From: an uncultured Bacteroidales bacterium
Lineage (GTDB): Bacteria > Bacteroidota > Bacteroidia > Bacteroidales > JAGODS01
Assembly (NCBI GenBank): GCA_964564355.1
Contig: CAZMDE010000004.1
Coordinates: 1-27,715 of the forward strand
Length of the DNA: 27,715 bases
Direction of reading: 5' to 3'
Notes under the pieces: model-generated
The model's input: only the letters and a program-made list of their open reading frames with translations
Told to the model about the DNA's origin: nothing
Databases searched by the model: none
Shown here: positions 221-27,449 of the stretch, piece by piece
Position numbering within the stretch: position 1 is the first letter of the stretch
Layout: each line of letters opens with the position of its first letter
Translations under genes and position numbers: made by a program

Positions 221-271
221 TAATTTGGCAAATTGGTAATTTAGCAATTTACTGAATACTGATAACTGACA
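221..271 (+). repeat. Composite octamer + heptamer tandem tract upstream of uppS
   Basis: taatttgg-caaattgg-taatttag-caattt (221-250) followed by actgaat-actgata-actgaca (251-271). Confidence 0.6.
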
Positions 272-278
272 ATGTTTT

Positions 279-1052
279 ATGAGTTTTAAGGATAAAATAG
301 ATTTGAACAGATTGCCTCAGCATGTAGCAATAATAATGGATGGCAATGGAAGGTGGGCAAAACAAAGAGGTTTTGAAAGAATTTTGGGGCATGAGCATGC
401 TGTTTTACCAGTAAGGGAGACAACAGAAGCAGCAGCAGAGCTTGGAATAAAGTACCTGACTTTATATGCATTTTCTACAGAAAACTGGAAACGCCCGATT
501 GATGAGGTAAATGCTTTAATGAATTTATTAGTAAAAACTATAAATAAAGAGACTGAAACACTAAATAAAAATAACATACGTTTACTTGCAATTGGAAATT
601 TAAAAAGCCTGCCAGAAGATTCTTATTCAGAATTAATGGAAGCTATAAATGAAACTTCAAAAAATACAAGAATGTCTTTAGTTTTGGCATTAAGCTATGG
701 AGCTCGTTGGGAAATAGTAGATGCCGTAAAACAATTGATACTTGATAATTATACAGAATTGAGAATTGAGAATGGAGAATTGAGAATTAAAAATGAAGAA
801 ATAACAGAGGAGCTGTTTAGTCAATATCTTACAACAAAAGGGATTCCGGATCCGGAGCTAATGATAAGAACAAGCAGTGAATACAGAATAAGCAATTTTT
901 TATTGTGGCAATTAGCATATTCCGAATTATATTTTAGTTCAAAATTATGGCCTGATTTCACAAAAGAGGATTTCTATGAAGCATTATTGAATTATCAAAA
1001 TCGAGAGAGAAGGTTTGGTTTAACAAGTGAACAAATTAGTCCAAAGTCGTAA
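279..1052 (+). CDS. uppS: Isoprenyl transferase (undecaprenyl diphosphate synthase, cis-prenyltransferase)
   Basis: HVAIIMDGNGRWA, YAFSTENWKRP, RTS(S)EYRISNFLLWQ and C-terminal RRFG motifs; lies directly upstream of bamA, as is usual. Confidence 0.96.
   Translation: MSFKDKIDLNRLPQHVAIIMDGNGRWAKQRGFERILGHEHAVLPVRETTEAAAELGIKYLTLYAFSTENWKRPIDEVNALMNLLVKTINKETETLNKNNIRLLAIGNLKSLPEDSYSELMEAINETSKNTRMSLVLALSYGARWEIVDAVKQLILDNYTELRIENGELRIKNEEITEELFSQYLTTKGIPDPELMIRTSSEYRISNFLLWQLAYSELYFSSKLWPDFTKEDFYEALLNYQNRERRFGLTSEQISPKS
733..803 (+). repeat. In-frame heptamer tract inside uppS
   Basis: aattgat-acttgat-aattata (733-753), then agaattg-agaattg-agaatgg-agaattg-agaatta-aaaatga-agaaata (755-803); encodes QLILDNYTELRIENGELRIKNEEI. 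Confidence 0.9.
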
Positions 1053-1064
1053 GTAAACAGTTTT

Positions 1065-3656
1065 ATGAAAATTAAATATAAAAATTTACTAATTCTTTTT
1101 TTGCTTTCCATAGTATACTGTTTCCTGATTATATCGGGATTCACTGTTTTAAAAGCCCAGGTAATATTAGATGCAGAACAAATTAATATTGATTACAGTA
1201 ATCCAAGAACATATGAAATAGGGGGTATTACCATATCCGGAACGCAATACCTGGACAATAATATTCTTATAACCTTATCAGGATTAACGGTTGGAGACAA
1301 AATTGAGGTGCCGGGAGATAAGATAACAAAAGCCATTCAAAACTTATGGAAACAGGGATTGTTTGAGAATATAAAAATATCTGTTTCAAAAATTAACGGT
1401 GGGGTAATTTTTCTTAATATTTATTTAGAAGAAAAACCCCGTTTATCCAAATTCACATTTACAGGTTTAAGAAAGTCAGAAGCTAACAGCTTAAAGGATA
1501 AAACAAAACTTACGAAGGGGGATGTTGTAACTGAAAATCTTATAATGAGAACTTCAAATCTTATTAAAAATCATTTTACGGATAAAGGTTACATGAATAC
1601 TAATGTAAACATTATTCAGAAGCGTGACACATCGGTTACCAATAATGTTATTCTGATTATTAATGTAAATAAAGGGAAAAAAGGAAAGATTGGTAAAATC
1701 ACTTTTATTGGTAATAAAATACTATCAGAAGCAAAGCTTAAGAGGTTAATGAAAAAAACCAAGGAACATAAGTTTTTCAGAATATTTACAGCATCAAAAT
1801 TTATTGAATCAGAATACAAGGCAGATAAGCAAAAAATTATTGAAAAATATAATGAGATTGGTTTCAGGGATGCAAGAATAGTAAATGACTCGGTGTATAA
1901 AGAAAAGTTCGGAGTTCGGAGTTCGGAGTTCGGAGTTAGTAATAAAAATAAGGATGAACAACCGGGGAAATATATAAATATAGATATAAAGGTTGATGAG
2001 GGTAATAAATATTATTTCAGAAATATAACCTGGGTTGGAAACTCAAAATATACATCAGAAGAATTAAGCAGGGTATTGAAGATAAATAAAGGAGAGATTT
2101 ACAATCAGAAGAGATTAGATGCAAATTTATATATGAACTTAGAAGGTCAGGATGTAAGCTCTTTATATCTTGATGATGGCTATTTGTTTTTCAATGTAAC
2201 TCCAGTCGAAAAGCAAGTAGAAAATGATTCAATTGATATAGAATTCAGGATATATGAAGGCAAACAGGCAAGGATAAATAAAGTATATATTTCGGGAAAT
2301 ACAAAGACCAATGACCATGTAATTCTAAGAGAAATCAGAACAAGACCCGGTCAGTTATTTAACAGGTCAGATATCATAAGAAGCCAGAGAGAGCTAGCAC
2401 AACTAAAATATTTTAATGCAGAAAAAATCCAGATAAATCCAAAACCTAATCCACAGAATGGAACGGTAGACATAGAATATGTAGTAGAAGAAACATCATC
2501 AGACCAATTAGAACTATCAGGCGGCTGGGGAGGAGCAGCAACAGGACTTGTAGGAACATTAGGGGTTTCATTCAATAATTTTTCTCTAAGAAAAATTGCT
2601 AGAAGAGATGCCTGGCGACCGCTTCCTTCAGGAGATGGACAAAAATTAAGCCTGAGAGTACAAGCTAACGGGAGGCAATACCAATCATATAATGCATCAT
2701 TTACAGAACCCTGGCTAGGAGGGAAAAAACCTAATTCATTAAGTGTTTCTTTTTATAATTCAATACAAACAAATGGTTTAGCCAAGGGCGAAGCATCCAG
2801 ACAAGCTATAAATATTTACGGAGCATCAGTAGGCTTAGGAAAAAGGATTACCTGGCCTGATGATTTTTTCACACTTTACCAGGAAGTTGGTTATCAGAAT
2901 TACAAACTTGAAAATTACTTATCAACGTTTTTATTTGCTGATGGAACTTCGAATAATATATTTTATAATATTACCCTGGCAAGAAATTCTTTTGATGCGC
3001 CAATTTTTCCGAGAACAGGTTCATCAATTTCATTATCTTTAAAAGTCACACCTCCTTTTTCGTTGTTTACAGATAAAGACTATTCAGCATTATCTGCACA
3101 AGATAAATATAAATTGATAGAATATCATAAATGGAATTTTAATACTTCGTGGTTTACAAAATTAGCCGGCAATTTAGTGTTAAACACAAGGTTAAGATAT
3201 GGCTTTATGGGAGACTTTAATAGAGGAATCGGGATTTCACCATTTGAGAGATATTATGTAGGAGGTAGCGGGTTGTCCGGATTTTCACTAGATGGCAGAG
3301 AAATAATAGCAATGAGAGGTTATGCAGATTATTCATTAACACCCAGAAACAATTCCGGATATATAGGCGGTTCGATATTTAACAAATATACTATTGAATT
3401 AAGATACCCATTATCATTAAACCCGATGGCAACTATTTATTTATTAGGATTTGCAGAAGCAGGAAATGCGTGGACAAAATTTAAGGAATTTAATGCTTTT
3501 GATGTAAAAAGGTCAGCAGGTTTTGGAATCAGGGTTTTTTTACCAATGTTTGGATTACTCGGGCTTGATTGGGGTTATGGGTTTGATGAAATTCCCGGAA
3601 ATCCCGGAAATAACAAGGGACAGTTCCATTTTTCAATCGGGCAATCAATAGAATAA
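1065..3656 (+). CDS. bamA: Outer membrane protein assembly factor BamA
   Basis: Signal peptide, five POTRA-like segments, barrel start SSDQLELSGGWGG, MRGY loop motif, C-terminal FHFSIGQSI; uppS-bamA-skp order. Confidence 0.96.
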   Translation: MKIKYKNLLILFLLSIVYCFLIISGFTVLKAQVILDAEQINIDYSNPRTYEIGGITISGTQYLDNNILITLSGLTVGDKIEVPGDKITKAIQNLWKQGLFENIKISVSKINGGVIFLNIYLEEKPRLSKFTFTGLRKSEANSLKDKTKLTKGDVVTENLIMRTSNLIKNHFTDKGYMNTNVNIIQKRDTSVTNNVILIINVNKGKKGKIGKITFIGNKILSEAKLKRLMKKTKEHKFFRIFTASKFIESEYKADKQKIIEKYNEIGFRDARIVNDSVYKEKFGVRSSEFGVSNKNKDEQPGKYINIDIKVDEGNKYYFRNITWVGNSKYTSEELSRVLKINKGEIYNQKRLDANLYMNLEGQDVSSLYLDDGYLFFNVTPVEKQVENDSIDIEFRIYEGKQARINKVYISGNTKTNDHVILREIRTRPGQLFNRSDIIRSQRELAQLKYFNAEKIQINPKPNPQNGTVDIEYVVEETSSDQLELSGGWGGAATGLVGTLGVSFNNFSLRKIARRDAWRPLPSGDGQKLSLRVQANGRQYQSYNASFTEPWLGGKKPNSLSVSFYNSIQTNGLAKGEASRQAINIYGASVGLGKRITWPDDFFTLYQEVGYQNYKLENYLSTFLFADGTSNNIFYNITLARNSFDAPIFPRTGSSISLSLKVTPPFSLFTDKDYSALSAQDKYKLIEYHKWNFNTSWFTKLAGNLVLNTRLRYGFMGDFNRGIGISPFERYYVGGSGLSGFSLDGREIIAMRGYADYSLTPRNNSGYIGGSIFNKYTIELRYPLSLNPMATIYLLGFAEAGNAWTKFKEFNAFDVKRSAGFGIRVFLPMFGLLGLDWGYGFDEIPGNPGNNKGQFHFSIGQSIE
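1906..1937 (+). repeat. In-frame (AGTTCGG)4.5 tract inside bamA
   Basis: Four perfect AGTTCGG copies plus AGTT; encodes KFGVRSSEFGV. Confidence 0.95.
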
Positions 3657-3688
3657 TTAGGAATTAGGAATTAATAATTAGTAATTAG
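3654..3688 (+). repeat. Heptamer tract (KAATTAG)5 starting at the bamA stop codon
   Basis: taattag-gaattag-gaattaa-taattag-taattag; resumes as taattag-gaat at 3861. Confidence 0.85.
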
Positions 3689-3860
3689 TGCCTGTCCATA
3701 AAGTCATAAATAAAAAAAGTAACACAGAGATACACAGAGAAGACACAGAGTTTATTCACAATATTAATCTAATATTAAAGAGTTCATGAGATAAATGTTC
3801 ACAGAGAAGAAAAAATAAATGTTTCACATTTGGAAAATGTGAAACATTATGGACAGATAC
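3688..3860. mobile_element. 173-bp MITE-like / IS-remnant element
   Basis: Terminal inverted repeats gtgcctgtccataa (3688-3701) and ttatggacagatac (3847-3860) match at 12/14; taatta direct repeat on both sides (3682-3687, 3861-3866); no ORF; internal ACACAGAG x3 and a 14-bp hairpin at 3818-3848. Confidence 0.65.
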
Positions 3861-3902
3861 TAATTAGGAATAAATTTTAAATAACATTTAACTTATCAGA
3901 TT

Positions 3903-4454
3903 ATGAAAAAAGGAGTTTTTAGTTTAATATTTGTTTTAATGTTAAGCGGTTTTGCCAATGCACAGAAGTTTGCATTTGTAGATACAAAGTATATTCTTGA
4001 TAACATTCCGGAATATAAAGCTGCCCAGGAACAGCTTGATGAGTTATCCCTGCAATGGCAAAAAGAAATTGAAGTAAAGTTTGCAGAGATAGATAAAATG
4101 TATAAAGATTATCAGGCAGAAGCTGTGCTTCTACCTGAAGATATGAAAAAGAAAAAAGAAAACCAAATAGTAAGCAAGGAAAAAGAAGCCAAGGACTTAC
4201 AAAAGAAAAGGTTTGGCAATGACGGCGATTTGTTTAAAAAACGAGAAGCTTTAGTAAAACCAATTCAGGATAAAGTATATAATGCAATAGAAACAATTGC
4301 TACAACAGGAAATTATGGTATTGTCTTTGATCAGGCAGGAAGTCTAACCATTTTATATGGAGATTCGAAGCTTGATAAAAGTGATGATGTTTTAGAAAAA
4401 TTAGGAGTTACTCCAGGTAAAGAAAAGAAAGAAAAAGGAAAGTCCAAAAAATAG
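3903..4454 (+). CDS. skp: OmpH/Skp family periplasmic chaperone
   Basis: Signal peptide ending ANA-QK, FAFVDTKYIL start, coiled-coil core, YGIVFD segment; follows bamA. Confidence 0.92.
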   Translation: MKKGVFSLIFVLMLSGFANAQKFAFVDTKYILDNIPEYKAAQEQLDELSLQWQKEIEVKFAEIDKMYKDYQAEAVLLPEDMKKKKENQIVSKEKEAKDLQKKRFGNDGDLFKKREALVKPIQDKVYNAIETIATTGNYGIVFDQAGSLTILYGDSKLDKSDDVLEKLGVTPGKEKKEKGKSKK

Positions 4455-4524
4455 ATTTGTCAGATTTATCAGATTGTCAGATTTATCAGATTTTATATCT
4501 GTTAATCTTATAATCTTCTAATCC
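4453..4524. repeat. Degenerate palindromic element: (AGATT..)n followed by (..AATCT)n, period 8-9 nt
   Basis: agatttgtc-agatttatc-agattgtc-agatttatc-agattt, core hairpin cagat-tttat-atctg (4487-4501), then taatctta-taatcttc-taatcc. Confidence 0.8.
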
Positions 4525-4531
4525 AATTATT

Positions 4532-5488
4532 ATGGAGTACCTCATAAAAGCAGTAGATATTACCAAGCGATATATAAACCATACTGCTCTTAATAATGTA
4601 AGCATTTCCGTTCCGGAACAAAGTATCTATGGATTGCTTGGACCCAATGGAGCAGGGAAAACAACTCTTATCAGATTAATAAATCTAATAAATGCACCAG
4701 ATGAGGGTGAAATATATTTTGGTGGTGAAAAGTTATCAAATAAACATACTGCTTATATTGGTTATCTGCCTGAAGAAAGAGGTTTATATAAGAAAATGAA
4801 AGTCGGAGAACAGGCTTTGTACCTAGCACAATTAAAGGGCTTAAGCAGACATGATTCTTTAATAAAACTGAAATATTGGTTTGAGCGTTTTGAAATCCAG
4901 GATTGGTGGAACAGAAAAGTAGAAGAACTTTCAAAAGGTATGCAGCAGAAAGTTCAGTTTATGGTAACAGTTTTACATAGTCCCAAACTATTAATATTTG
5001 ATGAACCTTTTAGTGGCTTTGACCCAATAAATGTAAACATACTTAAGGATGAAATATTAAATTTCAGAAAAAACGGAGCCACTATCATTTTTTCTACTCA
5101 TAATATGGCTTCTGTTGAAGAGCTATGTGACCACATAACTCTTATTAATAAATCAAAAAAAATACTTGAGGGGGAAGTTAAGCAAATAAAAAAAGCCAAT
5201 AAGACTGATTTGTATGATGTAGAATTTGAAAAACCAGATACTATAGAAGCAGGAATAGAAAGTTTATTACCGGCAGGTTATACATTAATAAACCAGGTTA
5301 ATGAAGACGGATTAGTCAGAGCTAAGGTTCGGATTCCAACTAATTCATCACCAAACAAGCTGCTTGAAATGCTGTTTCCATATGTAACTATACATTCTTT
5401 TAAAGAGATTATGCCAACAATGAATGACATTTTTATTTCAATGATTGAAGCAGACATAAAAGCAATTAACAAAGAACAATTAATTTAG
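4532..5488 (+). CDS. ABC-2 type transporter ATP-binding subunit (NatA/YhaQ-like)
   Basis: Walker A GPNGAGKTT, signature LSKGMQQ, Walker B LLIFDEP, STH switch, C-terminal accessory domain. Confidence 0.93.
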   Translation: MEYLIKAVDITKRYINHTALNNVSISVPEQSIYGLLGPNGAGKTTLIRLINLINAPDEGEIYFGGEKLSNKHTAYIGYLPEERGLYKKMKVGEQALYLAQLKGLSRHDSLIKLKYWFERFEIQDWWNRKVEELSKGMQQKVQFMVTVLHSPKLLIFDEPFSGFDPINVNILKDEILNFRKNGATIIFSTHNMASVEELCDHITLINKSKKILEGEVKQIKKANKTDLYDVEFEKPDTIEAGIESLLPAGYTLINQVNEDGLVRAKVRIPTNSSPNKLLEMLFPYVTIHSFKEIMPTMNDIFISMIEADIKAINKEQLI

Positions 5489-5495
5489 AACAGTG
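5461..5495 (+). repeat. Degenerate heptamer tract across the ATPase stop / permease start
   Basis: agcaatt-aacaaag-aacaatt-aatttag-aacagtg. Confidence 0.45.
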
Positions 5496-6857
5496 AGTAG
5501 TAAAATATTAATAATAATAAAAAGAGAATATCTGACAAGGGTTAGGAAAAAATCATTCATTGTAATGACTATTCTAGGACCAATACTGATGGCTGCAATA
5601 ATAATATTACCAGTTTATTTAGCCCAGATGTCAGATGAAGTCAAGACAATTGCAGTAGTTGATGATACAGGTTTGTTTTATAAAAGATTTCCAGATTCCG
5701 ATAATTTAAAATTTATTTATCTTAATACGAAGATTAATGCTTCAAAGGAAAATTTTGTAAAAAGCAGTTTTTATGCATTATTATACATTCCAATAGATTC
5801 AAATAATGCTGTTGTACCGACTAACTTCATGCTTTATTCAAGTAAACAGCCAAGCATGATAATAAAAGCTTATCTTGAGAATATTCTTAAGAAAGACATA
5901 GAAAGCCTAAAGCTTGCTAAGTCAGGCATTGATGAAACTGTTATTGCATCTATCAATACTAATGTTAACATTACTACTATAAAAATCAAAAGCACCGGTT
6001 CAGAAGAAAGGAGCTATTCAGAAGTTAGCAGTATTCTTGGGCTTTTTGCAGGCTTACTCATCTACTTTTTTATTTTTATGTACGGGGCACTTGTATTAAG
6101 GGGAGTTATTGAAGAGAAAACTAACAGAATAATTGAAGTAATAATTTCTTCAGTAAAACCATTTCAGTTAATGATGGGGAAGATTTTGGGAATAGCAACT
6201 GTCGGTCTAACACAATTTCTTTTATGGGTTATTCTTACTTTTGGACTTGTATTCACTGTTCAAAAATCCTTACCAAGTATTTTTAAAAATAACAAAACAA
6301 TAAATAGCAATCAATTGTCAATGCCAAGTTATCAGTCAAATGAAAACAGCAAATTAGCAACTGAGAGTTCAAAACAAACAAAAGATGATAAAAGCGATGA
6401 AATAAAATCAGTTTTTGAAGCGATTAATTCTATCAATTTTCCAATAATGATATTTTCATTTTTATTTTATTTTATTGGCGGATATTTGCTTTATGCTGCA
6501 TTGTTTGCAGCAGTGGGAGCGGCAGTAGATAATGAGGCAGATACACAGCAATTTATGCTACCTATAACAATCCCTTTGTTATTTTCAGTAATAATGATAC
6601 AATTTATCGTAAATAATCCTGAAGGTCCTATAGCCTTCTGGCTTTCATTAATACCCTTTACATCTCCGGTAATAATGATGGTTCGCATACCATTTGGGGT
6701 ACCCTACTGGGAGCTTGCTCTTTCAATAACGTTGTTGATATTTACTTTTATAGGAACAACCTGGATGGCTGCAAAGATATACCGTACGGGGATATTAATG
6801 TACGGTAAAAAGGTTAATTATAAAGAATTATGGAAATGGCTAAGATATAGTGATTAG
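5493..6857 (+). CDS. ABC-2 type transporter permease (NatB/YhaP-like)
   Basis: GTG start; IIKREYLTRVRKKSF, EEKTNRIIEVIISSV and multiple hydrophobic helices; 4 bp downstream of the ATPase. Confidence 0.92.
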   Translation: MSSKILIIIKREYLTRVRKKSFIVMTILGPILMAAIIILPVYLAQMSDEVKTIAVVDDTGLFYKRFPDSDNLKFIYLNTKINASKENFVKSSFYALLYIPIDSNNAVVPTNFMLYSSKQPSMIIKAYLENILKKDIESLKLAKSGIDETVIASINTNVNITTIKIKSTGSEERSYSEVSSILGLFAGLLIYFFIFMYGALVLRGVIEEKTNRIIEVIISSVKPFQLMMGKILGIATVGLTQFLLWVILTFGLVFTVQKSLPSIFKNNKTINSNQLSMPSYQSNENSKLATESSKQTKDDKSDEIKSVFEAINSINFPIMIFSFLFYFIGGYLLYAALFAAVGAAVDNEADTQQFMLPITIPLLFSVIMIQFIVNNPEGPIAFWLSLIPFTSPVIMMVRIPFGVPYWELALSITLLIFTFIGTTWMAAKIYRTGILMYGKKVNYKELWKWLRYSD

Positions 6858-6938
6858 CAGATTATAGGATTCCAATATTATCAGATTAAATCTAATAATC
6901 TAACTTGAGAATCTTAGAATCTGCCAATCAGATAATCT
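6851..6938. repeat. Second degenerate palindromic (GATT..)n / (..AATC)n element
   Basis: tgattagc-agattata-ggatt...tcagatt, then aaatct-taatct-agaatctt-agaatctg-ccaatcag-ataatct; fills the gap between convergent genes. Confidence 0.7.
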
Positions 6939-7325: not shown

Positions 7326-9026
7326 TTAAATCAAATTAGCAAATTCAAATTTAGTAACATCAAACAAACCTTTATCACCTAATTTAAGTTCAGGAATAAC
7401 AAGCAAAGCCATGAAAGATAGAGTCATGAATGGAGAGGTTAATTTTGTACCCAGATTTATAACAGTTTTATTTATTGATTGATATATATCAGCAACCTGA
7501 TAAATATTGGCATTAGACATAAGACCAGCTACAGGCAAGGGGAGGATTTTGGAATTTGAATTATAAATGCTTAATTCTGAATAAGAAATACCGCCTTTGT
7601 TATCAATAATCATATTAATTGCATTAACTATATCCTCATCATCTGCACCAACAGCAATGATATTATGACTATCATGAGCGATACTAGAGGCTATGGCTCC
7701 ATATTTAAAGCCAAATCCTTTAATAAAACCAACTGCAGGTTTTGAATGCTGAATATCATATCTGTTGTATACAACAATTTTCAGAGTATCATTTTCAATA
7801 TCACTTACAATATTATTATCAAAGATTTTTGCCTTTTCGATAAGAGATTTGGTAAAAAGTTGTCCGTCTATAGCTTCAATCACCCTGATAGATGCCGGAA
7901 GCTTGAGGACGGAAGCTGGAAGTTCAATGTCTTTTAAGGTAATTTTATTGCAATGAAAGTTATTTAATGGTTCTTCTTTTAAAGAATTAATCAATGTATT
8001 TCCTTTATCAGCAACTTTTTCACCATTTATGTAAGTTGATAAAACGTTAAAGTTATTCAGATTGTCAACAATAATAAAGTCGGCAGGATCTCCTTCTTGT
8101 AATAATCCGACGTTGAGATTGTAATGTTTAACAGGGTTATAGGTACAGCTTCTGATAATATCCATTGTATTATAACCACTTTTTATTGCTTTTTTAATCA
8201 GCAAATTAATATGACCTTGTATTAAATCATCAGGATGCCTGTCGTCAGAACAGAACATTAGGCTATCAGGATATTTAGCAATTAAAGGAATAAGCTCGTC
8301 AAAATCTTTAGCTGCACTGCCCTCTCTTATAAGAATTTTCATTCCGAACTTGATTTTATCCTCTGCCTCACTTATTGTCATACATTCATGGTCAGTGCTT
8401 ATACCTGCCTTTGCATAAGCTTGAGCATCATTTCCTTTTAAACCAGGTGCGTGTCCGTCAACAGGTTTTTTATATTTTTTTGCTAATTCAATCTTGCCAA
8501 TTACTTCCCTATCATTATTCAAAACACCAGGGAAGTTCATCATTTCTGACAAATATTTAATCTCCTTAATGCTTAATAATTCCTCAGTTTCTTTCAATCC
8601 AAAATTAGCTCCAGATGTTTCAAAAGCTGTAGCCGGGACACAGGAAGGAGCACCGAAATAAAATTTAAAATTAACCTTCTTTCCATTATTAATCATAAAT
8701 TTTACACCTTCAATACCAAGAACATTTGCAATTTCGTGCGGGTCGGACACAGTTGCAACTGTTCCATGAACCACAGCAGCCCTGGCAAATTCTGAGGGAA
8801 TAACCATAGAACTTTCAATATGAATATGAGCATCAATTAGTCCAGGCAGGATAAAAGATTTGGTGATTTGGTGATTTGGTGATTTGATAATTTGATTATC
8901 TGACTGTGGACAGTGGACTATTTTAACAATCTTTCCATTTTCAATATTTATAGTTCCATAAAAGATTTCTTTATTGACAACATCAACAATATTTCCGCTT
9001 ACAGAAAACGTTTTAACTTTATTCAT
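7326..9026 (-). CDS. ade: Adenine deaminase
   Basis: PGLIDAHIHIESS, DPHEIANV, EMMNFPGV, DGHAPG, TDHEC, REGSAAKD, SDDRHP, AHDSHN, FMTLSFMALLVIPELK. Confidence 0.95.
   Translation of the reverse strand: MNKVKTFSVSGNIVDVVNKEIFYGTINIENGKIVKIVHCPQSDNQIIKSPNHQITKSFILPGLIDAHIHIESSMVIPSEFARAAVVHGTVATVSDPHEIANVLGIEGVKFMINNGKKVNFKFYFGAPSCVPATAFETSGANFGLKETEELLSIKEIKYLSEMMNFPGVLNNDREVIGKIELAKKYKKPVDGHAPGLKGNDAQAYAKAGISTDHECMTISEAEDKIKFGMKILIREGSAAKDFDELIPLIAKYPDSLMFCSDDRHPDDLIQGHINLLIKKAIKSGYNTMDIIRSCTYNPVKHYNLNVGLLQEGDPADFIIVDNLNNFNVLSTYINGEKVADKGNTLINSLKEEPLNNFHCNKITLKDIELPASVLKLPASIRVIEAIDGQLFTKSLIEKAKIFDNNIVSDIENDTLKIVVYNRYDIQHSKPAVGFIKGFGFKYGAIASSIAHDSHNIIAVGADDEDIVNAINMIIDNKGGISYSELSIYNSNSKILPLPVAGLMSNANIYQVADIYQSINKTVINLGTKLTSPFMTLSFMALLVIPELKLGDKGLFDVTKFEFANLI
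7551..7585 (+). repeat. Degenerate heptamer tract inside ade
   Basis: ggaattt-gaattat-aaatgct-taattct-gaataag; encodes YSELSIYNSNS on the minus strand. Confidence 0.45.
7890..7924 (+). repeat. Heptamer (GGAAGCT-like) tract inside ade
   Basis: agatgcc-ggaagct-tgaggac-ggaagct-ggaagtt; encodes ELPASVLKLPAS. Confidence 0.7.
8857..8918 (+). repeat. Octamer + heptamer tract inside the ade N-terminal region
   Basis: (gatttggt)3-gatttgat-aatttgat (8857-8896), then tgtggac-agtggac (8905-8918); encodes VHCPQSDNQIIKSPNHQITKS. Confidence 0.92.
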
Positions 9027-10893: not shown

Positions 10894-11736
10894 ATGAGAA
10901 AAATTATACTTAAAAGTTTATTAGCAATCAGTTTAGCTGTTACAACAGGTTTATATGCACAGATACCAAATGCATCATTTGAGAATTGGACTACAGTAGG
11001 TGGGGTTCAAAAGCCAGATGGATGGAGAACCTATGACATTCCAGGAGAATCGCCAACAATAACACCTTCTACACCGGGTTATAACAGTAGTACAGCCCTG
11101 GAAATGACTATTAAGAATTCTCTTGGCTACAATTGGTGCAGTGATATGGTAACAGGTTTTCAATACAATAAAAGGTCTATGTCAATGGTTGGATACCTTA
11201 AATCCAATAACCCACAGCATGATACACTTGATATAGGATTATTCTTTTTTAATAATAAACAACCCATAGGTGGAGGTTATTACCAAACTGACACCAATGC
11301 GGCAGCTTTTTATAAATTTACTATGCCTATTCAGTTTATAGAAGATTTAGACCCTGATTCAGCTTTAATATATATAACATATTTAAGCGAAGCCCCTACT
11401 CTTGGTGATGCATTTATAATTGATGAGCTTAGCTTTCCTTCAGATGTTTTTGTGGAAAGCAAATCAAATTCTTCAGATTTTAAAGTTGGTAATTTTTATC
11501 CTATACCGGCGAATGATTATGTAATTATTCCTGTGAAAACTTCAACTCAAGTTGATTTGAAGATACAGGTATATGACCTTGCAGGTAAAGAAATTAAATT
11601 AATTAGAAAAGAACATATTGGCAAAGGCATCAATAATATTGAAATACCTGTTTCAGATTTACCAGGAGGTTTATACATTATGTCAATTGAAAATAATAAT
11701 GGATTTAAAATCACAAAAAAGCTGATTATTGAGTAG
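10894..11736 (+). CDS. T9SS type A sorting domain-containing secreted protein
   Basis: Signal peptide, QIPNASFENW jelly-roll-like start, C-terminal YPIPA...YDLAGK...LPGGLY...KKLII T9SS tail. Confidence 0.88.
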   Translation: MRKIILKSLLAISLAVTTGLYAQIPNASFENWTTVGGVQKPDGWRTYDIPGESPTITPSTPGYNSSTALEMTIKNSLGYNWCSDMVTGFQYNKRSMSMVGYLKSNNPQHDTLDIGLFFFNNKQPIGGGYYQTDTNAAAFYKFTMPIQFIEDLDPDSALIYITYLSEAPTLGDAFIIDELSFPSDVFVESKSNSSDFKVGNFYPIPANDYVIIPVKTSTQVDLKIQVYDLAGKEIKLIRKEHIGKGINNIEIPVSDLPGGLYIMSIENNNGFKITKKLIIE

Positions 11737-11866
11737 AAACCGGAAGTTAGAAGCCTAAACTTCGCTCAGCATAACAATAGAATCCGGATGCTTCGACTAC
11801 GCTCAGCATGACAATAGAATTCGGAAGCTTCGACTACGCTCAGCATGACAATGGAAGCTAGAAAAT
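11735..11866 (+). repeat. 37-bp tandem REP-like repeat (about 2.8 copies) interleaved with heptamers
   Basis: Core TCGACTACGCTCAGCATGACAAT at 11793-11815 and 11830-11852, plus a partial copy ending at 11778; linkers agaatcc-ggatgct and agaattc-ggaagct; flanks agaaacc-ggaagtt-agaagcc and ggaagct-agaaaat. Confidence 0.88.
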
Positions 11867-11880: not shown

Positions 11881-12537
11881 ATGAAATCATATAAGATTTT
11901 GCTTATAATATTTTTTTCTTTTTTGATTACTATTGGTTGTCAAAGGAAAAATCCTTCAGAGCCTCAACCCGGGAAGCATACAGATACTGCAAAAACTCAA
12001 CAAGCCTTAAATACTAAAAATATAAAAGATGAATCAAAATATGGCATAAAATCAGGAATCATCACTTTTGAGACAGATATTGCCGGTACTAAAGGTATGA
12101 AAAAGCTTTATTTTGATGATTATGGCAAACTTGAGAGAGAGGTTTTTTATGATGAGGAAATTCCAAGAGAGGGTTATGTAACAGCAGGGGGCTTTTTGTA
12201 TAGAATTTTATATAAACAAAAAACAGCTTACCGCTTAGGACCAGCAAAAAGTGGAAGTGCATACAGATTCAGCTGGAATTCTGTACCCGACATAGAAAAA
12301 AAAGAAGGACATGCCATTAAAACAGAGAATGTAAAAATAGCCGGGAAAATCTGTGAATCATATAAATTGGATAATTCCGGAATCATCACAAAATTTGCCG
12401 GTTGGCAGGGTATTTGCCTATATGCTATGCAAATGAGCAAGGTAGGCAATGCAGAAGCAAAGGCAGTAAAGATTAAGGAAAATGTTCCCATACCTGAAGA
12501 AATGTTTGAAATACCCAGAGGGTTTAAGGTTAAGTAG
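11881..12537 (+). CDS. Hypothetical lipoprotein (possibly DUF4412-like)
   Basis: Lipobox ITIG-C20; KIAGKICESY...WQGICL segment recalls DUF4412-type proteins. Confidence 0.7.
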   Translation: MKSYKILLIIFFSFLITIGCQRKNPSEPQPGKHTDTAKTQQALNTKNIKDESKYGIKSGIITFETDIAGTKGMKKLYFDDYGKLEREVFYDEEIPREGYVTAGGFLYRILYKQKTAYRLGPAKSGSAYRFSWNSVPDIEKKEGHAIKTENVKIAGKICESYKLDNSGIITKFAGWQGICLYAMQMSKVGNAEAKAVKIKENVPIPEEMFEIPRGFKVK

Positions 12538-12539
12538 GG

Positions 12540-12588
12540 AGTTCGGAGTTCAGAGTATAATAAAGCTTTCAGCAATCAGCATTCAAAT
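12540..12588 (+). repeat. Two short intergenic heptamer tracts
   Basis: agttcgg-agttcag (12540-12553; same unit as in bamA) and ttcagca-atcagca-ttcaaat (12568-12588). Confidence 0.55.
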
Positions 12589-12603
12589 ATTACAAAAGAT
12601 TCC

Positions 12604-13589: not shown

Positions 13590-13617
13590 TTACGAATTAA
13601 AATTTACGAATTACGAT
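13590..13617 (+). repeat. Heptamer tract just upstream of the manA start
   Basis: ttacgaa-ttaaaat-ttacgaa-ttacgat. Confidence 0.75.
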
Positions 13618-13680
13618 TTAGCAAAGTAAACAAAATATTATTTATTTTTAATGAATAAATATTCATAAATAATTATTCAT

Positions 13681-17712: not shown

Positions 17713-18088
17713 TCTGATTGATTCTGAAAAGGGAATCATCAACATGTGTAAAGAAATAGTTTAACCCCTAGAACTTACTTTACATAAACATTGCATTTAT
17801 CTAATATTCCGAAAAGGGTTTCTTTCAAACGTTATTTATAACGTAAATAAAATTGTTCCACGATGTTTTTATTTAAGCAGAAATGAATGTAATATCGATA
17901 TAGTATTTGTAATAGTCCAATTCTGATAAATCGGAATAAGTGCCTTGTACAATATCATTTACTCTATCGGTATTTCGCCATTCCGATAAATCGTGAGAAC
18001 TATTTTGTTAAAAGTAATGTTATTATATAAGAGTAGGAATCGCTTAACATAAAAGAAGAGTCAAAAATTTAATAGATATTGTTTCCCT

Positions 18089-18128
18089 AAGAAAAAAGGC
18101 TGCTAATTAATTAGCAGCCTTTTTTCTT
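18089..18128. terminator. Bidirectional intrinsic terminator
   Basis: Perfect 40-bp palindrome aagaaaaaaggctgctaatt|aattagcagccttttttctt with T-tracts on both strands, between convergent genes. Confidence 0.9.
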
Positions 18129-18149
18129 TAATAAAATTAGCCTTACTAT

Positions 18150-21100
18150 TTATTTTCCAATAATTATTTTTCGAATAGATTGATTCTTACCGTTTTCAAC
18201 TTTTAGGTAATAAATTCCATTCTGAAGTTTATTTACAATTATTTCTTTAGTAATCAATTTGTTATTGGTGTAAACTCTTTCTGAATACAAATTTTGTCCC
18301 AGTAAATTTGTAAGAGTTAAGTTAATATAATCCAAATGTTCAGTTTTATCGGGGTTATATTTTACAAAAAAGCTATTTTTACATGGTATAGGAAATACAT
18401 CAAGGATAGAATTATCTGATAAATGATTATTAATTCCAGAAATAATACGAAATGTATTCCATTGAGTAGTGTCTACAGCAGATATTGCCCTAATTCTCCA
18501 ATAATAGTTAACCTGGGGCTTTAATCCTGATATTGTAGTACCCGTAGCTGTTGCTATTGGTTTGCTTATAACAGGTGAAGGAAATGCTGTATCAATATCA
18601 TATTGAAATTCATAATTTTTTATTCCTGTAATAAGTTGCCAATAGAAAGACACGCTTGGAAATTTATATAAAGGTGATTTGGACGGGGTAACTTCATCAA
18701 TTGTAGAAAAGGTTCTTATATCGCTCCACTCAGATTTATCACCAGTACCTCCTTGTGACTGCACCCTCCAGTAATACTTAGTGCCGAATTTTAACGTATC
18801 GGATTTAACTAAGTTATATGTAGAACTTCTACTGATTTTATTTCTGGAATTAAACAATTTGCTATTATCAATTTCATAATTATATACATCATTTCCAATA
18901 ATATTATCCCATTGTAGTTCAACGATCGGCATTTGATTTATAGCACCATCCAGAGGTAAAACCGCATTAAATTTATTTATTGTAGTGAATTTAACAGGTT
19001 GAGACCAATCTGAAGTATCAATACTATTTCTTCCTCTTACTTCAATAAAGTATATTTTTCCGAACAATAAATTATTAATAATAAAATTAGTTAATCCATA
19101 AGTTGAACCTTTTATAGTGTCTTTAGTCTTAAATGATAAATCACTATCAATCCTGTAATCATAATCAGTAGCTCCAGAAAGTGATGTAAACTGGAGTGTC
19201 AGTCTTGGCATTTGATCAATTGAGTTATTTACAGGTGATATTATCCTGACTGTCTTTATTGTTGTAAAATTTCTCACAGGAGACCATTCAGAAGTATTTA
19301 ATGTACCCAGTGCTCTTACTCTCCAATAATACTTTGTATCATATTTTAATGAATTACAAATATTAAAGCTGTCTGTTACTATAACATCAATTAATGAAGG
19401 ATTAAATGTATCTGTTTTAGCAAGCTGGATTTGATAACCTGTTATACCTGTTATTTTGTTCCAGTTCACTTTCATATCAATTATTGGTTGGCTTACAGCA
19501 TTATCAGCAGGACTTATTTGGTTAGGATTGTTTAAAACAATAAAGGAAAATACTTCAGACCAATCAGAAGATAAAGTTGCATTCTTTGCTTTTACCCTCC
19601 AAAAATACTTTACGCCAAATTTAAGATTTGATGCATTTTTTTGGTTAACAGTTATAGATGAGTCAATATCAGGATTTGGGAATAAGCTGTCAGTATCAAT
19701 TTGTACTATATATTTTGCAGAACCTGAAATCTGCTCCCATAATAATAAAGAATTAGGCATTTGATTTATAGCACCATAAACAGGATAATATAATTCAGGA
19801 GTATCCGGCATATTGCCGATAGTAGAAAAAGAAAATGTATCTGACCAGGCAGAAGAATCTTTTGTTGTTTTTGACTTAACTCTCCAATAATATAATTTTT
19901 TATATAATAAGGTAGAAGCAGAAATTTTATAATTACCTCTGTTAGCGGTTGTATTAATTAATGGTTTTGCCGGAAAATCTGAATTTTCATCCACCTGAAT
20001 TCTATAAGAAGTTGCTCCGGTTATTTCTTTCCATGACAAAGTGGGAGTAAGTGGCTGATTAAAAGCATTATCAGAAGGTTTCAATAAAACTGGTGATGCA
20101 ATATGTCCGTCATTTGTTGAAAAGGAGAAAACAGACCATTTGGAAGTATCCGCATAAATTGCTCTTACCCGCCAATAATAGGTTGTTGATTTTAGTAAAT
20201 TTGTAAATGTTGCATTAATTGTTGTTCCTTTAAAAGATTTAAAAGTAGTGTGATTAGGATTAAATGTAATTGAAGTGTCTAGTTCACATTCATACTTACC
20301 GGCTAAAGCTGCCCACTTTAACACTAAATTAGTTGTAGTTTGATTTTTGGCTCCGTCTATAGGTTCAAGTAGAGTTGGATATTCAGTTACAGTAAAAGAC
20401 CTTGTTACAGACCATGAAGAAATATTATTTGCTCCCAGTCCTTTTACCCTCCAATAATAGGTTTTCCCAAATTTTAAACTGCCAAACAGGTATTTAGTTG
20501 AAGTGATGTCTTTTTTAATTATTGCCTTATTAAATGAAGGAGAACTGTCAACCTGAATCATATATGTATAGGCATCCTGAAGTGGATTCCAGGATAAATA
20601 TGGGCTGGGAGATTGATTAATAGCTGAATCTAATGGGCTTATTAATTGAGGTGCATCTGTTAAATTAAAAATGGTAGAGAATTTCCAAATATTAGACCAG
20701 GCTGATTTAGAAACTAAATTTCCTGCTTTTACTCTCCAGTAATATATAGTACCAACTGACAGGTTATTTAAATTAACAAATACAGCAGGAGGAACATCTG
20801 GCTTGGGCGGTTTATGGGTTATTGAATTTGAATCCTGAATCAAAAGAGGTGTGTTAAAATAAGGTGTAACATCAACTTCATAATAATAATTATAAGCTCC
20901 GTTGATTTTTGTCCATCTTATAGTAACAGGTATTTTTTGTTGTGGGGTTAATGTATCAGCAGGTAAGGTTTGAAAAACAGTATTTATTACTGTGAATTTA
21001 GAATATTTTGACCAAGCAGAAGTATCCTTTGGTAGTTGTGTATTTATATTAACTCCTATAGATCTAACTCTCCAGAAATATGTTTTGCCAAAAATAAGGT

Positions 21101-21349: not shown

Positions 21350-21373
21350 TTTAGTGATTTAGTAATTTAGTAA
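21350..21373 (+). repeat. Octamer tract between the two T9SS genes
   Basis: tttagtga-tttagtaa-tttagtaa; a rotation of the taatttag unit at 237-244. Confidence 0.7.
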
Positions 21374-24442: not shown

Positions 24443-24517
24443 ATAACATTTTGATTGCAAACCTAAATTATTTTTTAATCAGATAATCTTAAAATCATGG
24501 AATCTTTGAATTTTTTG

Positions 24518-24525
24518 TAGTTTTG
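24518..24525 (+). promoter_or_regulatory. -7 promoter motif TAGTTTTG for parC
   Basis: TAnnTTTG 47 nt upstream of the ATG. Confidence 0.5.
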
Positions 24526-24572
24526 TCCTTTGATTTTAATCTAAAATTGTAAACCGTACGTCGTAATTAATA

Positions 24573-27449
24573 ATGATGGAAGAGGATGACATAGGGATAG
24601 GAGGAGAGGTGCAAAAGAGCATATCTCTGACCGGTATGTATAAAGACTGGTTTCTTGACTATGCTTCTTATGTTATACTTGAGCGTGCAGTACCTGATTT
24701 AAAGGATGGGCTTAAACCTGTTCAGAGACGCATTCTTCATTCAATGAAGGAGCTTGATGACGGGAGGTACAATAAAGTTGCTAATATCATTGGCCATACT
24801 ATGAAGTACCATCCTCATGGTGATGCTTCAATAGGAGATGCTCTTGTTCAGCTTGGTCAGAAAGACCTCCTGATAGATTGCCAGGGAAATTGGGGAAATA
24901 TATATACCGGCGACAGTGCCGCTGCATCAAGATATATAGAGGCAAGGTTATCTAAATTTGCGAATGATGTTGTTTTTAATCCAAAGACTACAAAATGGCA
25001 ATTGTCATATGACGGCAGGAATAAAGAACCTATTACACTTCCAGTCAAATTTCCACTTTTGCTGGCTCAGGGAGTAGAGGGTATAGCTGTAGGTCTTGCT
25101 TCCAAAATTCTTCCACATAATTTCAACGAGCTTATTGATGCTTCTATCAACTGTCTTAAAGGTGTAGAAACAGAAATTTATCCTGATTTCATTACCGGAG
25201 GCATGATAGATGTTGCAAGATATAATGATGGACTCAGAGGCGGGAAAATAAGAATCAGGGCAAAAATTTCCCAGTTTGATAAAAAGACATTAGTCATAAA
25301 TGATTTACCTTTTGGCACTACAACAACGCAACTTATAGATTCAGTTTTAACAGCCAATGAAAAAGGGAAAATCAAAATACGAAAGATTGAAGATAATACT
25401 TCAGAAAACGTAGAAATATTAATCCACCTTATCCCAGGAGTTTCACCTGACCTCACAATAGATGCTCTTTATGCTTTCACTGACTGCGAAATTTCTATTT
25501 CTCCCAACTCATGCGTTATTGATAATAATAAGCCAGTGTTTCTCGGAGTAAAGGAATTGCTTAAGATTTCTACCAATAACACAATTGACCTGTTGCAGAA
25601 AGAACTTGAGATAAGAAAGGCTGAGCTTGAAGAAGCCTGGCATTTCGCTTCGCTTGAAAAGATATTTATTGAAAAAAGAATATACCGCAAGATTGAGGAA
25701 TCCGAAACATGGGAAAACGTTATTGAAACTATAGATAAAGGTTTGAAACCTTATAAAAAGCTATTCAAACGTGAAATCACAAGGGATGATATTATAAGGC
25801 TAACTGAAATTAAGATTAAACGTATTTCAAAATTCGACTCTTTTAAAGCTGATGATATTATTAAAGACATTGAAATAAATATTGACGAAGCTGTTAATAA
25901 CCTTGAACACCTTGTTGATTATGCAATTTATTATTACAAACAGATAAAGAAAAAATACGGACAGGGAAGAGAAAGGAAAACAGAAATAAGGAATTTTGAT
26001 ACTATAGAAGCTACATTGGTGGCTCATGCAAATGAAAAATTATACTTTAATCTTGAGGAAGGTTTTGCAGGAACAGGTCTGAAGAAAGACCAGTATATTT
26101 GCGATTGTTCCGATATAGATGACATAATTGCATTCAGGAGTGATGGCACTTTCATTGTTACTAAAGTTGCAGATAAAGTATTTGTAGGAAAGGATATAGT
26201 TCACATATCTGTTTTCAAGCGTAATGACAACCGGACTATATACAACATGATATATCAGGATGGTTTGCGGGGCAATGCAATGGTTAAGAGATTCGCAGTT
26301 GACAGCGTTATAAGAGATAAGGAATATGTCCTGACAAAAGGCACGAATGATTCCAAAATACTCTATTTCACTGCTAATCCAAATGGTGAAGCAGAATTGA
26401 TTACTGTCTTTCTTGTTCCCAAACCCAAGCTAAGGAAGCTGCTCTTTGACTTTGATTTCAGCTCTATTGTGGTGAAAGGCAGGAACTCAATTGGTAATAT
26501 CCTTACAAAATACAGAGTAAGAAAAATTGCTTTAAAAGGTGAGGGTGTTTCAACTCTAAGCGCAAGGAAAATTTGGTTCGATGACACTGTGATTCGTTTG
26601 AATGCAGAGGAAAGAGGCAAGTACCTCGGAGAGTTTTCCGGTGATGAGAAGATTATTTCAATCATGCAATCCGGCAATTACAGGCTAACAGGCTTTGACC
26701 TTACTACCCACTTTGACGAAGACCTGATTTTTATAGCGAAGAGCGAAGAGCGAAGAGCGAAGACTGAAGAGCTTCCAAATGGAGACAATCAACAGACAAC
26801 TATCAACGATCAACAAATTTATACTGCTGTCTATGTTGATGGTGAGACAGGGCAATATTATTTGAAGCGTTTTAATATTGAGCCTTCAGATAAAAAGATT
26901 TGCTTCATAAGCGAACATCCGGAATCTAAGCTTGTTTTGATTACTAAAAATCCAGATCCAAAAATCAAAATAGAATTTAAGAAAATTAAAAATATACAAA
27001 GACCTGATGAGATTGTAATATGTGCAGATTTTATCAGTGTTAAAGGCTATAAAGCTAAAGGAAAACGCCTCACAACTCATGAAGTTGCAAAAATCACCCT
27101 GATAGAAGATGCATTAGTAGATAGCGAAAAGCGAGAAGCAAAGAGCGATGAGAAGGAGTTAAAGATTGAGGAGAAAAATACTGTTGAAGAAAAGATACCT
27201 TATAAAGAAAAAGCTATTCCGGGAAAACCAAAGAAGAATAAGGATTTAGTATCTACAGATAAACCAAAAGTCAAAACTCAAAAATTAGTTGAAGAAATTC
27301 CTGAAGAAAAGATTAAGCCTGCAAAAACAAAACAATCTCAGACAAATCCTGCTGAAGAAAAATCAGTTAAATCTAAAAAACCAGAACAAAAGCCTGACAA
27401 AAAAAAGAAGCCAGATAATGATAGCGATATCCAGATGAAACTGTTCTGA
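24573..27449 (+). CDS. parC: DNA topoisomerase IV subunit A (Bacteroidota-type gyrase/topo IV A subunit)
   Basis: ERAVPDLKDGLKPVQRRILH, YHPHGDASI, catalytic AASRYIEARL; divergent C-terminal domain and K/E-rich tail point to ParC rather than GyrA. Confidence 0.88.
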   Translation: MMEEDDIGIGGEVQKSISLTGMYKDWFLDYASYVILERAVPDLKDGLKPVQRRILHSMKELDDGRYNKVANIIGHTMKYHPHGDASIGDALVQLGQKDLLIDCQGNWGNIYTGDSAAASRYIEARLSKFANDVVFNPKTTKWQLSYDGRNKEPITLPVKFPLLLAQGVEGIAVGLASKILPHNFNELIDASINCLKGVETEIYPDFITGGMIDVARYNDGLRGGKIRIRAKISQFDKKTLVINDLPFGTTTTQLIDSVLTANEKGKIKIRKIEDNTSENVEILIHLIPGVSPDLTIDALYAFTDCEISISPNSCVIDNNKPVFLGVKELLKISTNNTIDLLQKELEIRKAELEEAWHFASLEKIFIEKRIYRKIEESETWENVIETIDKGLKPYKKLFKREITRDDIIRLTEIKIKRISKFDSFKADDIIKDIEINIDEAVNNLEHLVDYAIYYYKQIKKKYGQGRERKTEIRNFDTIEATLVAHANEKLYFNLEEGFAGTGLKKDQYICDCSDIDDIIAFRSDGTFIVTKVADKVFVGKDIVHISVFKRNDNRTIYNMIYQDGLRGNAMVKRFAVDSVIRDKEYVLTKGTNDSKILYFTANPNGEAELITVFLVPKPKLRKLLFDFDFSSIVVKGRNSIGNILTKYRVRKIALKGEGVSTLSARKIWFDDTVIRLNAEERGKYLGEFSGDEKIISIMQSGNYRLTGFDLTTHFDEDLIFIAKSEERRAKTEELPNGDNQQTTINDQQIYTAVYVDGETGQYYLKRFNIEPSDKKICFISEHPESKLVLITKNPDPKIKIEFKKIKNIQRPDEIVICADFISVKGYKAKGKRLTTHEVAKITLIEDALVDSEKREAKSDEKELKIEEKNTVEEKIPYKEKAIPGKPKKNKDLVSTDKPKVKTQKLVEEIPEEKIKPAKTKQSQTNPAEEKSVKSKKPEQKPDKKKKPDNDSDIQMKLF
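26735..26814 (+). repeat. Two adjacent in-frame heptamer tracts inside parC
   Basis: (agcgaag)4-actgaag (26735-26769) and aatcaac-agacaac-tatcaac-gatcaac (26787-26814); encode AKSEERRAKTEE and NQQTTINDQQ. Confidence 0.93.
27123..27150 (+). repeat. Degenerate AGCGAAG-family tract at the start of the parC tail
   Basis: agcgaaa-agcgaga-agcaaag-agcgatg; encodes SEKREAKSD. Confidence 0.7.

Follow-up and report, generated by a model that had tools for sequence, protein, structure and literature searches.

Dispersed heptamer tracts of many word families in an uncultured Bacteroidales genome and a hypothetical mechanism of word copying, slippage and selection

The stretch of DNA considered here, a 27.7-kb window comprising contig C4 (CAZMDE010000004.1, 27,715 nt) of a metagenome-assembled genome (MAG) of an uncultured Bacteroidales bacterium (GCA_964564355.1; 3.24 Mb, 612 contigs, 33.5% GC), raises the question of how short tandem tracts of 7- or 8-nt units, differing in sequence and alike in period, come to lie at gene ends and in frame inside core genes such as bamA and parC. 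A first-pass annotation, made from the sequence alone, read them as a candidate selfish-repeat system in which local slippage explained neither the fixed period nor the reuse of units at distant sites. We confirm that the period-7/8 tracts extend from the window to the whole genome, and we propose, as the probable explanation, that the dispersed copying of words, slippage in place and selection together maintain a genome-wide population of about 1,160 tracts, which would make this genome an extreme case of multi-family heptamer repeats. The relatives of its ParC and BamA proteins are from uncultured Bacteroidia and Bacteroidales MAGs at identities of ≤76% (70–76% for BamA of the nearest relatives), and the organism therefore belongs to a lineage without a close sequenced relative.

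Is the period itself real? Tracts were called with Tandem Repeats Finder (TRF) at a score of ≥40, and three third-order Markov simulations served as the control. Genome-wide, there are 551 period-7 tracts against 0, 0, and 0 in the three controls, 196 of period 8 against 1–4, 117 of period 9 against 2–6 and 154 of period 11 against about 24, while period 5 gives 1 against 0 and period 6 gives 4 against 0–1. Perfect lag-identity runs of 10–13 agree: lag 7 gives 330 against 6, lag 5 gives 21 against 14 and lag 10 gives 28 against 7; the excess falls at lags 7, 8, and 11, and at lags 5, 6, 10, and 12 none is seen genome-wide beyond codon effects. The enrichment of period-7 and period-8 tracts that had been suggested for the window is thus upheld for the genome, and the fixed period is both real and specific, with 8, 9, and 11 enriched besides 7. 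After the merging of overlaps there are 1,162 tracts of periods 7–9, one per 2.8 kb, which occupy 2.3% of the genome and 8.9% of the DNA outside open reading frames (ORFs). Their length has its mode at 31–33 nt, or about 4.5 units, and perfect runs fall steeply past about 34 nt; across periods, the data are compatible with either a constant length or a constant number of copies. Relatives carry such tracts at 0.75, 0.68, 0.5, and 0 per 10 kb, compared with 2.67 here, and their words differ. Heptamer tracts, of different words, also lie at or near the 3' end of parC in several unrelated MAGs of other Bacteroidota (parC neighbourhoods L026, L034, L041, L074, and L094).

Can such tracts each have arisen where they stand? 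When rotations and strands are collapsed, the 545 strong heptamer tracts represent 143 distinct words, where 360 are expected from the 7-mer spectrum of the genome. By the same null, the largest word family has 30 members instead of 8, and there are 35 families of at least five members instead of 7. Several of the large families are richer in GC than the genome. (AGTTCGG)n is found at 25 loci and (ACTTACG)n at 26, with unrelated flanks and nearly always at a length of 28–32 nt. Moreover, the phase in which tracts start and end is non-uniform in the seven families tested (p of 1e-4 to 1e-10 at the start, the end or both; 4 of the 14 tests were not significant). Since words are reused beyond the composition null and phases are coherent within families, local slippage alone is insufficient, as had been surmised from the window. 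The triplet (AGTTCGG)3 has 15 matches here, 0 in one genome of the same family and is present in 2 of 200 genomes of the same order, and such figures point to lineage-specific bursts of particular words. TAACTGA is represented by 37 tracts within 1 mismatch across the genome, and within arrays neighbouring units drift gradually. Larger composite mobile units were considered and rejected, as neighbouring tracts pair randomly (51 distinct combinations among 52 pairs).

Where the tracts lie is far from uniform, and here selection is visible. Approximately 43% of the 1,162 tracts are intergenic, 18% cross a gene edge and 39% lie within ORFs, where random placement gives 12.6%, 4.4%, and 83%, so that 61% are outside or at the edge of ORFs compared with 17% expected. 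The share within ORFs depends on the word: it is 73% for words free of stop codons on both strands, close to the coding fraction, 45% for those with a stop on one strand and 13% for those with stops on both, and one-stop words take the antisense orientation within genes and the sense orientation at gene ends. Near-random insertion followed by a stop-codon filter predicts both these shares and these orientations. Many tracts begin at a stop codon because the tract often supplies the stop. Intergenic tracts also crowd against genes, with 111 of 270 at ≤6 nt from a gene where 61 are expected given the length of their spacers (p ~1e-11). Tract ends are often found 3–9 nt ahead of start codons, 12 of the 30 tRNA genes have a tract within 25 nt, and AAATTACT is oriented 8:0 before starts.

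Once in place, the tracts change. Filled and empty sites were compared through protein orthologues and within-genome paralogues, and a blast search of joined tract flanks against the genome for empty sites gave two informative paralogue pairs. In the first, on contigs C53 and C79, the flanks are about 90% identical and the tracts occupy the same site at the same length, yet their dominant words differ (AAGTTTC versus CAGTTCT), which is direct evidence that units were homogenised in place. In the second, a GGAAGCT tract of 48 nt on C417 corresponds to a lone AAGCT in the paralogue on C123, a difference that fits either seeding or microhomology-guided insertion. The genome has mutS, recJ, and xseA, and its mutL is cut by a contig end, so that no loss of it is shown; loss of repair genes was accordingly rejected as an explanation.

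The window illustrates both positions, gene end and gene interior. Its genes are uppS, bamA, skp/ompH, an ABC-2 transporter pair, ade, a LytTR protein, an argD-type transaminase, type IX secretion system (T9SS)-tail proteins, a mannose-6-phosphate isomerase-like gene, aroB, a radical-SAM methylthiotransferase, a Fib_succ protein, and parC. The repeat features are as follows, with the strand where one is assigned and the evidence in brackets.

222–275, plus strand: compound tract upstream of uppS, an octamer run of AATTTRGC type (about 3.8 units) and then three TAACTGA-family heptamers, ending 3 nt before the uppS ATG at 279 (TRF; lag-8 identity 0.74, lag-7 0.67).
755–800, plus strand: (AGAATTG)n, about 5 units and further degenerate units, translated within uppS, at an insertion of about 8 residues relative to a solved undecaprenyl pyrophosphate (UPP) synthase, PDB 1f75 (TRF, structure).
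1906–1937, plus strand: perfect (AGTTCGG)4.6, translated within bamA inside a 19-residue insertion absent in 6 same-order orthologues (TRF, 100% matches).
3654–3689, plus strand: (TAATTAG)5.1, with the bamA stop codon (ORF end 3656) as its first three bases; the tract continues at about 3860–3873, beyond the next feature (TRF).
3690–3866, unstranded: insert within the TAATTAG tract, resembling a miniature inverted-repeat transposable element, with terminal inverted repeats and period-11 CACAGAG-type repeats at 3722–3750 (TRF).
4453–4524, unstranded: cargo-less hairpin, (CAGATTNN)n and then the inverse (NNAATCTG)n, starting inside the skp/ompH stop codon (TRF at period 9, sequence).
5461–5490, plus strand: weak, degenerate AACAATT-family tract at the 3' end of the ABC ATPase gene (lag-7 identity 0.57; no TRF call).
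6851–6938, unstranded: second cargo-less inverted element, of CAGATT/AATCTG type, starting at the ABC permease stop codon, ORF end 6857 (sequence).
7551–7580, minus strand: degenerate heptamer tract within ade, at a lineage-specific insertion of 3–4 residues (lag-7 identity 0.61, alignment).
7890–7920, minus strand: degenerate GGAAGCT-family tract within ade, at a 4-residue insertion (sequence, alignment).
8857–8918, minus strand: (GATTTGGT)4.8 and two heptamers within ade, at a 12-residue insertion ahead of the metal-binding HxH motif (TRF; alignment with 5 orthologues, as for all three ade insertions).
11735–11866, plus strand: GGAAGCT-type heptamers around a 37-nt repeat, starting in the stop codon of a T9SS-tail ORF (TRF period 37, score 161).
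12538–12595, plus strand: (GGAGTTC)2.7 directly after the stop of ORF 11881–12537, and then a weak heptamer tract at 12568–12595 (TRF, lag profile).
13590–13620, unstranded: period-7 tract (TRF; ORF 12604–13584; Pfam).
21350–21373, unstranded: (TTTAGTAA)3 in the 46-nt gap between two large T9SS-tail genes, 3 nt upstream of the start at 21347 (TRF, ORFs).
26735–26814, plus strand: (AGCGAAG)5.4 and an adjacent, unlike ATCAACN-type run of 3.9 units in parC, jointly a 20-residue insertion absent in 15 orthologues (TRF, alignment).
27123–27283, plus strand: decayed AGCGAAG-family tract at 27123–27148 and AAACTCA-type tract at 27261–27283, in the variable C-terminal tail of parC (TRF, alignment).

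About 15 period-7 tracts had been proposed in the window, and TRF calls eight of them, at 755 (given earlier as 733), 1906, 3654, 12538, 13590, 26735, 26788, and 27123; with an additional tract at 27261 that the first-pass annotation did not have, the clear period-7 tracts number nine. The remainder are degenerate (251, 5461, 7551, 7890, 8905, 11735, and 12568, that at 251 being seen by TRF only as the end of a row), with a lag-7 identity of 0.47–0.67 against about 0.2–0.35 at other lags. The three period-8 tracts reported at 221, 8857, and 21350 correspond to TRF calls at 222, 8857, and 21350, and the two tracts described as palindromic (4453 and 6851) do consist of CAGATT-type units followed by their reverse complements. 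ORF ends and sequence also bear out that five tracts start within 3 nt of a stop codon. So too do unit families recur at distant sites: AGTTCGG at 1906 and 12538, GGAAGCT-type units at 7890 and 11735–11866, and AGCGAAG at 26735 and 27123. The large T9SS ORFs had been thought free of tracts, and both indeed hold 0 of period 7 or 8, yet at 1 tract per 2.8 kb this gap is not significant.

Beside these tracts stand three observations of a different kind. The 37-nt unit at 11759–11856 is present in 2.6 copies with 91% matches, and its core could pair across unit junctions. ORF 11881–12537 encodes 218 residues with no Pfam or NCBIfam match and has the 37-nt and heptamer array upstream and the (GGAGTTC) tract at its stop. 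Rfam covariance models gave no tract-associated match in the window at E up to 1; the only clustered Rfam matches, all sub-threshold (CsrC 3' end, Thr leader, and STnc390), fall at 18073–18153, just downstream of a 1065-residue T9SS gene, and this segment may be an intrinsic-terminator-like hairpin.

What do the tracts do to the proteins that contain them? The first-pass annotation had noticed that several are translated inside uppS, bamA, ade, and parC, and each in-gene tract that was compared coincides with a lineage-specific, in-frame insertion of 3–20 residues. An alignment with PDB sequences raised the idea that a conserved ade motif had been overwritten, and this was rejected, as same-order orthologues show a plain 12-residue insertion. 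In the POTRA loop of BamA that holds the AGTTCGG tract (alignment columns 372–392), two of the four nearest relatives (P0002 and P0005) carry inserts of about 19–20 residues and of other sequence, and the two closest (P0003 and P0004) have none; the loop therefore appears to be a place where insertions land, or are tolerated, repeatedly. The P0002 and P0005 inserts cannot be back-translated into perfect heptamers. In phase-variable contingency loci, a dispensable surface or modification gene is switched on or off as a simple sequence repeat gains or loses a unit. Here a change of one 7-nt unit would shift the frame, and the hosts include the essential genes bamA, uppS, and parC; no out-of-frame allele is seen in the window. 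Essential proteins (BamA, ParC, UppS, and MutL) are shown to absorb arbitrary peptides of 4–20 residues from tracts. The analogy that had been drawn with Rickettsia palindromic elements holds as far as tolerated in-frame insertions go and fails on structure, as the tracts are direct repeats of about 32 nt without an inverted half. On another contig (C265:3745–4371) the linker of MutL is partly encoded by AGCGAAG-family tracts; the gene reaches the contig end, and its N-terminal ATPase half lies outside the assembly.

We put these results together in a mechanism in three parts, copying, slippage, and selection. The members of a word family share their unit, their phase and a typical size of about 4.5 units (about 32 nt), and not their flanks. 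We propose that new tracts arise by the copying of an existing word to unrelated sites, beyond anything that slippage of the local sequence would give, that placement is near-random before selection, and that copying may proceed through short homology, from a nascent DNA end to a tract elsewhere, or through some protein. A tract in place changes by slippage, with units gained, lost, and homogenised. Purifying selection would set which tracts survive: words free of stops could stay in frame in protein loops and tails, those of essential proteins included, and words with a stop would survive only in a harmless orientation or at gene ends, where in many cases they would provide the stop codon or lie directly against the start codon. 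The reading frame would be restored by the gain or loss of units, which we presume because 7 is not a multiple of 3. The cassettes of four-helix-bundle and GxxExxY genes, described below, would use inverted pairs of the same words as hairpin arms, and would be passengers or partners of the tracts, probably not their main source.

Several points weigh against this mechanism as stated. Patterns of internal variants are rarely common to several loci (one is found on 4 contigs and one on 3), and therefore the copy-and-paste of whole tracts is not directly shown; the thing copied may be a word in fixed phase and number, not necessarily an entire existing tract, and re-creation of the word from a short template would fit equally. 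The focal length can also come from length-dependent slippage. Neither an enzyme nor a target-site duplication nor an event of movement was seen; for target-site duplications this rests on inspection of the family flanks, with no formal test made. The stop-codon filter does not explain the CAATTAA family, which has stops in both orientations and nonetheless lies 13:0 in the sense orientation after gene ends, a polarity for which an RNA-level or transcription-coupled effect is possible. Finally, the gene calls are longest open frames and crude, and it is for this reason that the location percentages are approximate.

If words are copied, is there a protein that copies them? All six genes of the genome for TIGR02436/PF05635 four-helix-bundle proteins lie between reverse-complementary arrays of short repeats, and all five GxxExxY genes (PF13366 PD-(D/E)XK nucleases) are likewise enclosed by inverted arms of short repeats, of another type and often of period 9–11, so that the link of heptamer runs to four-helix-bundle cassettes that the first-pass annotation had raised holds in this genome. 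Each cassette has its own arm word, which in three of them belongs to the largest AT-rich families, AACAATT, AATCTGAT, and AAATTACC; contigs C107, C254, and C12 are among those with four-helix-bundle cassettes. In the window itself there is no four-helix-bundle gene (PF05635/TIGR02436), and the only cassette-like features are the two cargo-less hairpins at 4453–4524 and 6851–6938, the first of which belongs to the arm family of the C107 cassette, and the insert at 3690–3866, whose CACAGAG-type repeats resemble the arms flanking a GxxExxY gene on contig C150. Two further arrangements are recorded here. On C229:3894–4605 (L016) a four-helix-bundle cassette lies between two tRNA-Leu genes, with heptamer tracts that start 5–6 nt from each tRNA 5' end, and on C58:10390–10683 18-nt blocks of ATCAGCGTT type recur four times, every 92 nt, their word being that of the arms of the GxxExxY cassette on C167.

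These cassettes suggest a system like that of repetitive extragenic palindromic (REP) elements and their associated tyrosine transposases (RAYT), in which a PF05635 (Avd-like) or GxxExxY protein binds or mobilises its own word in trans and the solitary tracts are cis sites or scars. We consider this unlikely, although there is evidence for it: besides the invariable inverted arms and the use of the largest AT-rich families by three cassettes, 297 of 832 tracts are within 1 mismatch of a four-helix-bundle arm word, both cargo-less hairpins of the window are built of the C107 arm word, and the Coxiella intervening sequence (IVS) has tandem heptamers right before its S23p ORF (PMC4990558). However, an inverted partner within 600 nt is found for only 13 of 832 tracts, compared with 8 for a reversed-unit control, and 62 genes are flanked by tracts on both sides where independence gives 43. 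Inverted partners being so rare and double flanking barely above independence, most tracts are not cassette arms or scars, and the earlier reading of them as empty sites or scars fails for about 98%. In addition, no cassette of the assembly belongs to the large, GC-richer families AGTTCGG, ACTTACG, GGAAGCT, and AGCGAAG, the arm words of GxxExxY genes are each found in 0–3 solitary tracts, a cassette landing beside a random tract would tend towards an abundant family anyway, and catalytic activity of PF05635 is not known. Quite unlikely, too, is that the tracts are ordinary microsatellites, grown in place from chance local duplications by a polymerase slippage that favours 7-nt loops, with no transfer between loci; for such loops Mrazek is said to have offered a polymerase-footprint idea. 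In-place homogenisation in the paralogues and the gradual drift among neighbouring units are what microsatellites would give, no special repair defect is needed or seen, and a heptamer excess is common in bacteria (PMC4692102). Yet in a genome of 33% GC, slippage without transfer cannot bring a GC-rich word to 25–30 unrelated loci, and it leaves unexplained the coherent start and end phases and the missing excess at periods 5, 6, 10, and 12.

Selection of the tracts as regulatory elements at gene boundaries, whether as mRNA leaders, 3'-end signals or sites of RNA- or DNA-binding proteins, would account for the excess over uniform placement of tract ends 3–9 nt before start codons and of tract starts at stop codons, for the strong strand polarity of CAATTAA and AAATTACT, and for the TAACTGA-family tracts that lie forward just upstream of ATGs, that of uppS included (cf. 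PMC4679880). We regard it as improbable, as the 39% of tracts within ORFs are unlikely to have such a role, more than 140 words would require many readers, and neighbouring tracts combine at random. Similarly improbable, in our judgement, is a dedicated word writer, a protein complex that would write a specific 7–9-nt word at new sites, in a fixed phase and in about 4.5 units (about 32 nt). A candidate could be an Avd-like four-helix-bundle protein that forms a pentamer and serves as a ruler, in partnership with a polymerase or the lone reverse transcriptase of the genome, and each four-helix-bundle paralogue would then specify its own word; if so, a single templated, telomerase-like insertion mechanism would produce bacterial heptamer repeats, IVS stems, and in-frame insertions in proteins alike. 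No writer enzyme was identified among the candidate genes of the assembly. Its only reverse transcriptase (C398; L109:1207–2475) is a stand-alone, unclassified protein of 422 residues, adjoining porQ, that falls below the curated cut-offs of the group II, retron, and defence-associated reverse transcriptase (DRT) models. Neither it nor the single GIY-YIG match in the genome shows a link to the tracts. Lastly, an assembly or binning artefact of a fragmented MAG is very improbable. In its favour are the division of the genome into 612 contigs and the fact that, of their 1,224 ends, 52 (4%) end in a tract, compared with 2.3% of bases. Against it, the tracts lie at loops and leave the reading frames of conserved essential genes unbroken, and the same class of tract occurs in relatives and in published genomes.

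How, then, does the proposed combination of word copying, slippage, and selection stand beside systems already described? Rickettsia palindromic elements are palindromic, considerably longer than these tracts and have a family consensus. The tracts resemble them as selfish-looking short insertions tolerated in frame in the loops of essential proteins, and differ in being non-palindromic tandem repeats, about 32 nt long, of a 7-nt word. In Nostoc, small dispersed repeats (SDR, 21–27 nt) are reportedly nested in heptamer arrays (the work of Elhai et al. in 2008). A small non-coding element likewise lies inside a heptamer tract here, that at 3690–3866 in the TAATTAG tract, although it is about 175 nt long, with terminal inverted repeats and CACAGAG-type repeats. 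REP elements flank, and are mobilised by, a Y1 transposase. This genome has two IS200-like Y1 transposase genes, on C155 and C210 (L110 and L111), with GC-rich REP-like hairpins alongside, and the hairpins at both are unrelated to the heptamer tracts. In the 23S rRNA IVS of Coxiella burnetii, an S23p/PF05635 ORF lies in a stem loop, with tandem heptamers of variable copy number right before it (PMC4990558). The six four-helix-bundle cassettes with inverted word arms are the counterpart in this genome, with the difference that they lie between protein or tRNA genes and not in rRNA, and that about 98% of the tracts are solitary and ORF-less.

The tracts are nearest to the heptamer repeats proper, which have been reported for decades from cyanobacteria, Xanthomonas, sulfur bacteria, and a few Bacteroidetes, and on whose origin and function there is, to our knowledge, no agreement. 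MacGregor (2015; PMC4679880) describes direct repeats of TAACTGA a short way upstream of start codons in Beggiatoaceae, Cyanobacteria, and five Bacteroidetes. Here, too, forward heptamers of this family lie a few nt upstream of starts, as at 251–275, 3 nt before the uppS ATG, and at several sites genome-wide, some copies are within ORFs, and contigs break in long arrays; however, there it is one dominant word with a proposed role as translational regulator, and here it is a minor family among tracts that are equally common at stops and in genes. The GGGAATC repeats of Xanthomonas and the GGGGAYT repeats of Nostoc (Rehm et al., 2015; PMC4692102) are likewise dispersed arrays with some inverted pairs, whose length and sequence vary among close relatives, although they are G-rich, quadruplex-forming, and intergenic, whereas those described here are mostly AT-rich or mixed, have no G-runs and are in many cases coding. 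With the short tandemly repeated repetitive (STRR) sequences of heterocystous cyanobacteria and the heptanucleotide long simple sequence repeats (SSRs) of prokaryotes (Mrazek et al., 2007, via PMC4692102), the likeness is in the tandem 7-nt units, the several families per genome, the strong period-7 excess, the many dispersed loci, and a function and origin not yet accounted for. The difference is that here there are more than 140 unit families, units also of 8, 9, and 11 nt, a density near 1 tract per 2.8 kb, a share of 39% lying in frame in ORFs (bamA, parC, and uppS included), a typical 4.5 units or so, and coherent phases within families.

This process, if it operates as we propose, would be a steady source of loop insertions and new gene ends. 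The link of tract words to the arms of four-helix-bundle and PD-(D/E)XK cassettes names proteins (C254, C107, and C12) and words (AACAATT, ATCAGATT, and GGTAATTT), and a writer or binder, if found, would account for a feature of many genomes and perhaps for how rRNA intervening sequences arose. With head-to-tail 7-nt repeats at many dispersed loci and a period-specific excess over composition, the case belongs to the heptamer class and is nothing categorically new. What it adds are whole-genome statistics that separate dispersal, slippage, and selection, and by these the genome is a dense, multi-family variant of a known and as yet unexplained kind of heptamer repeat.

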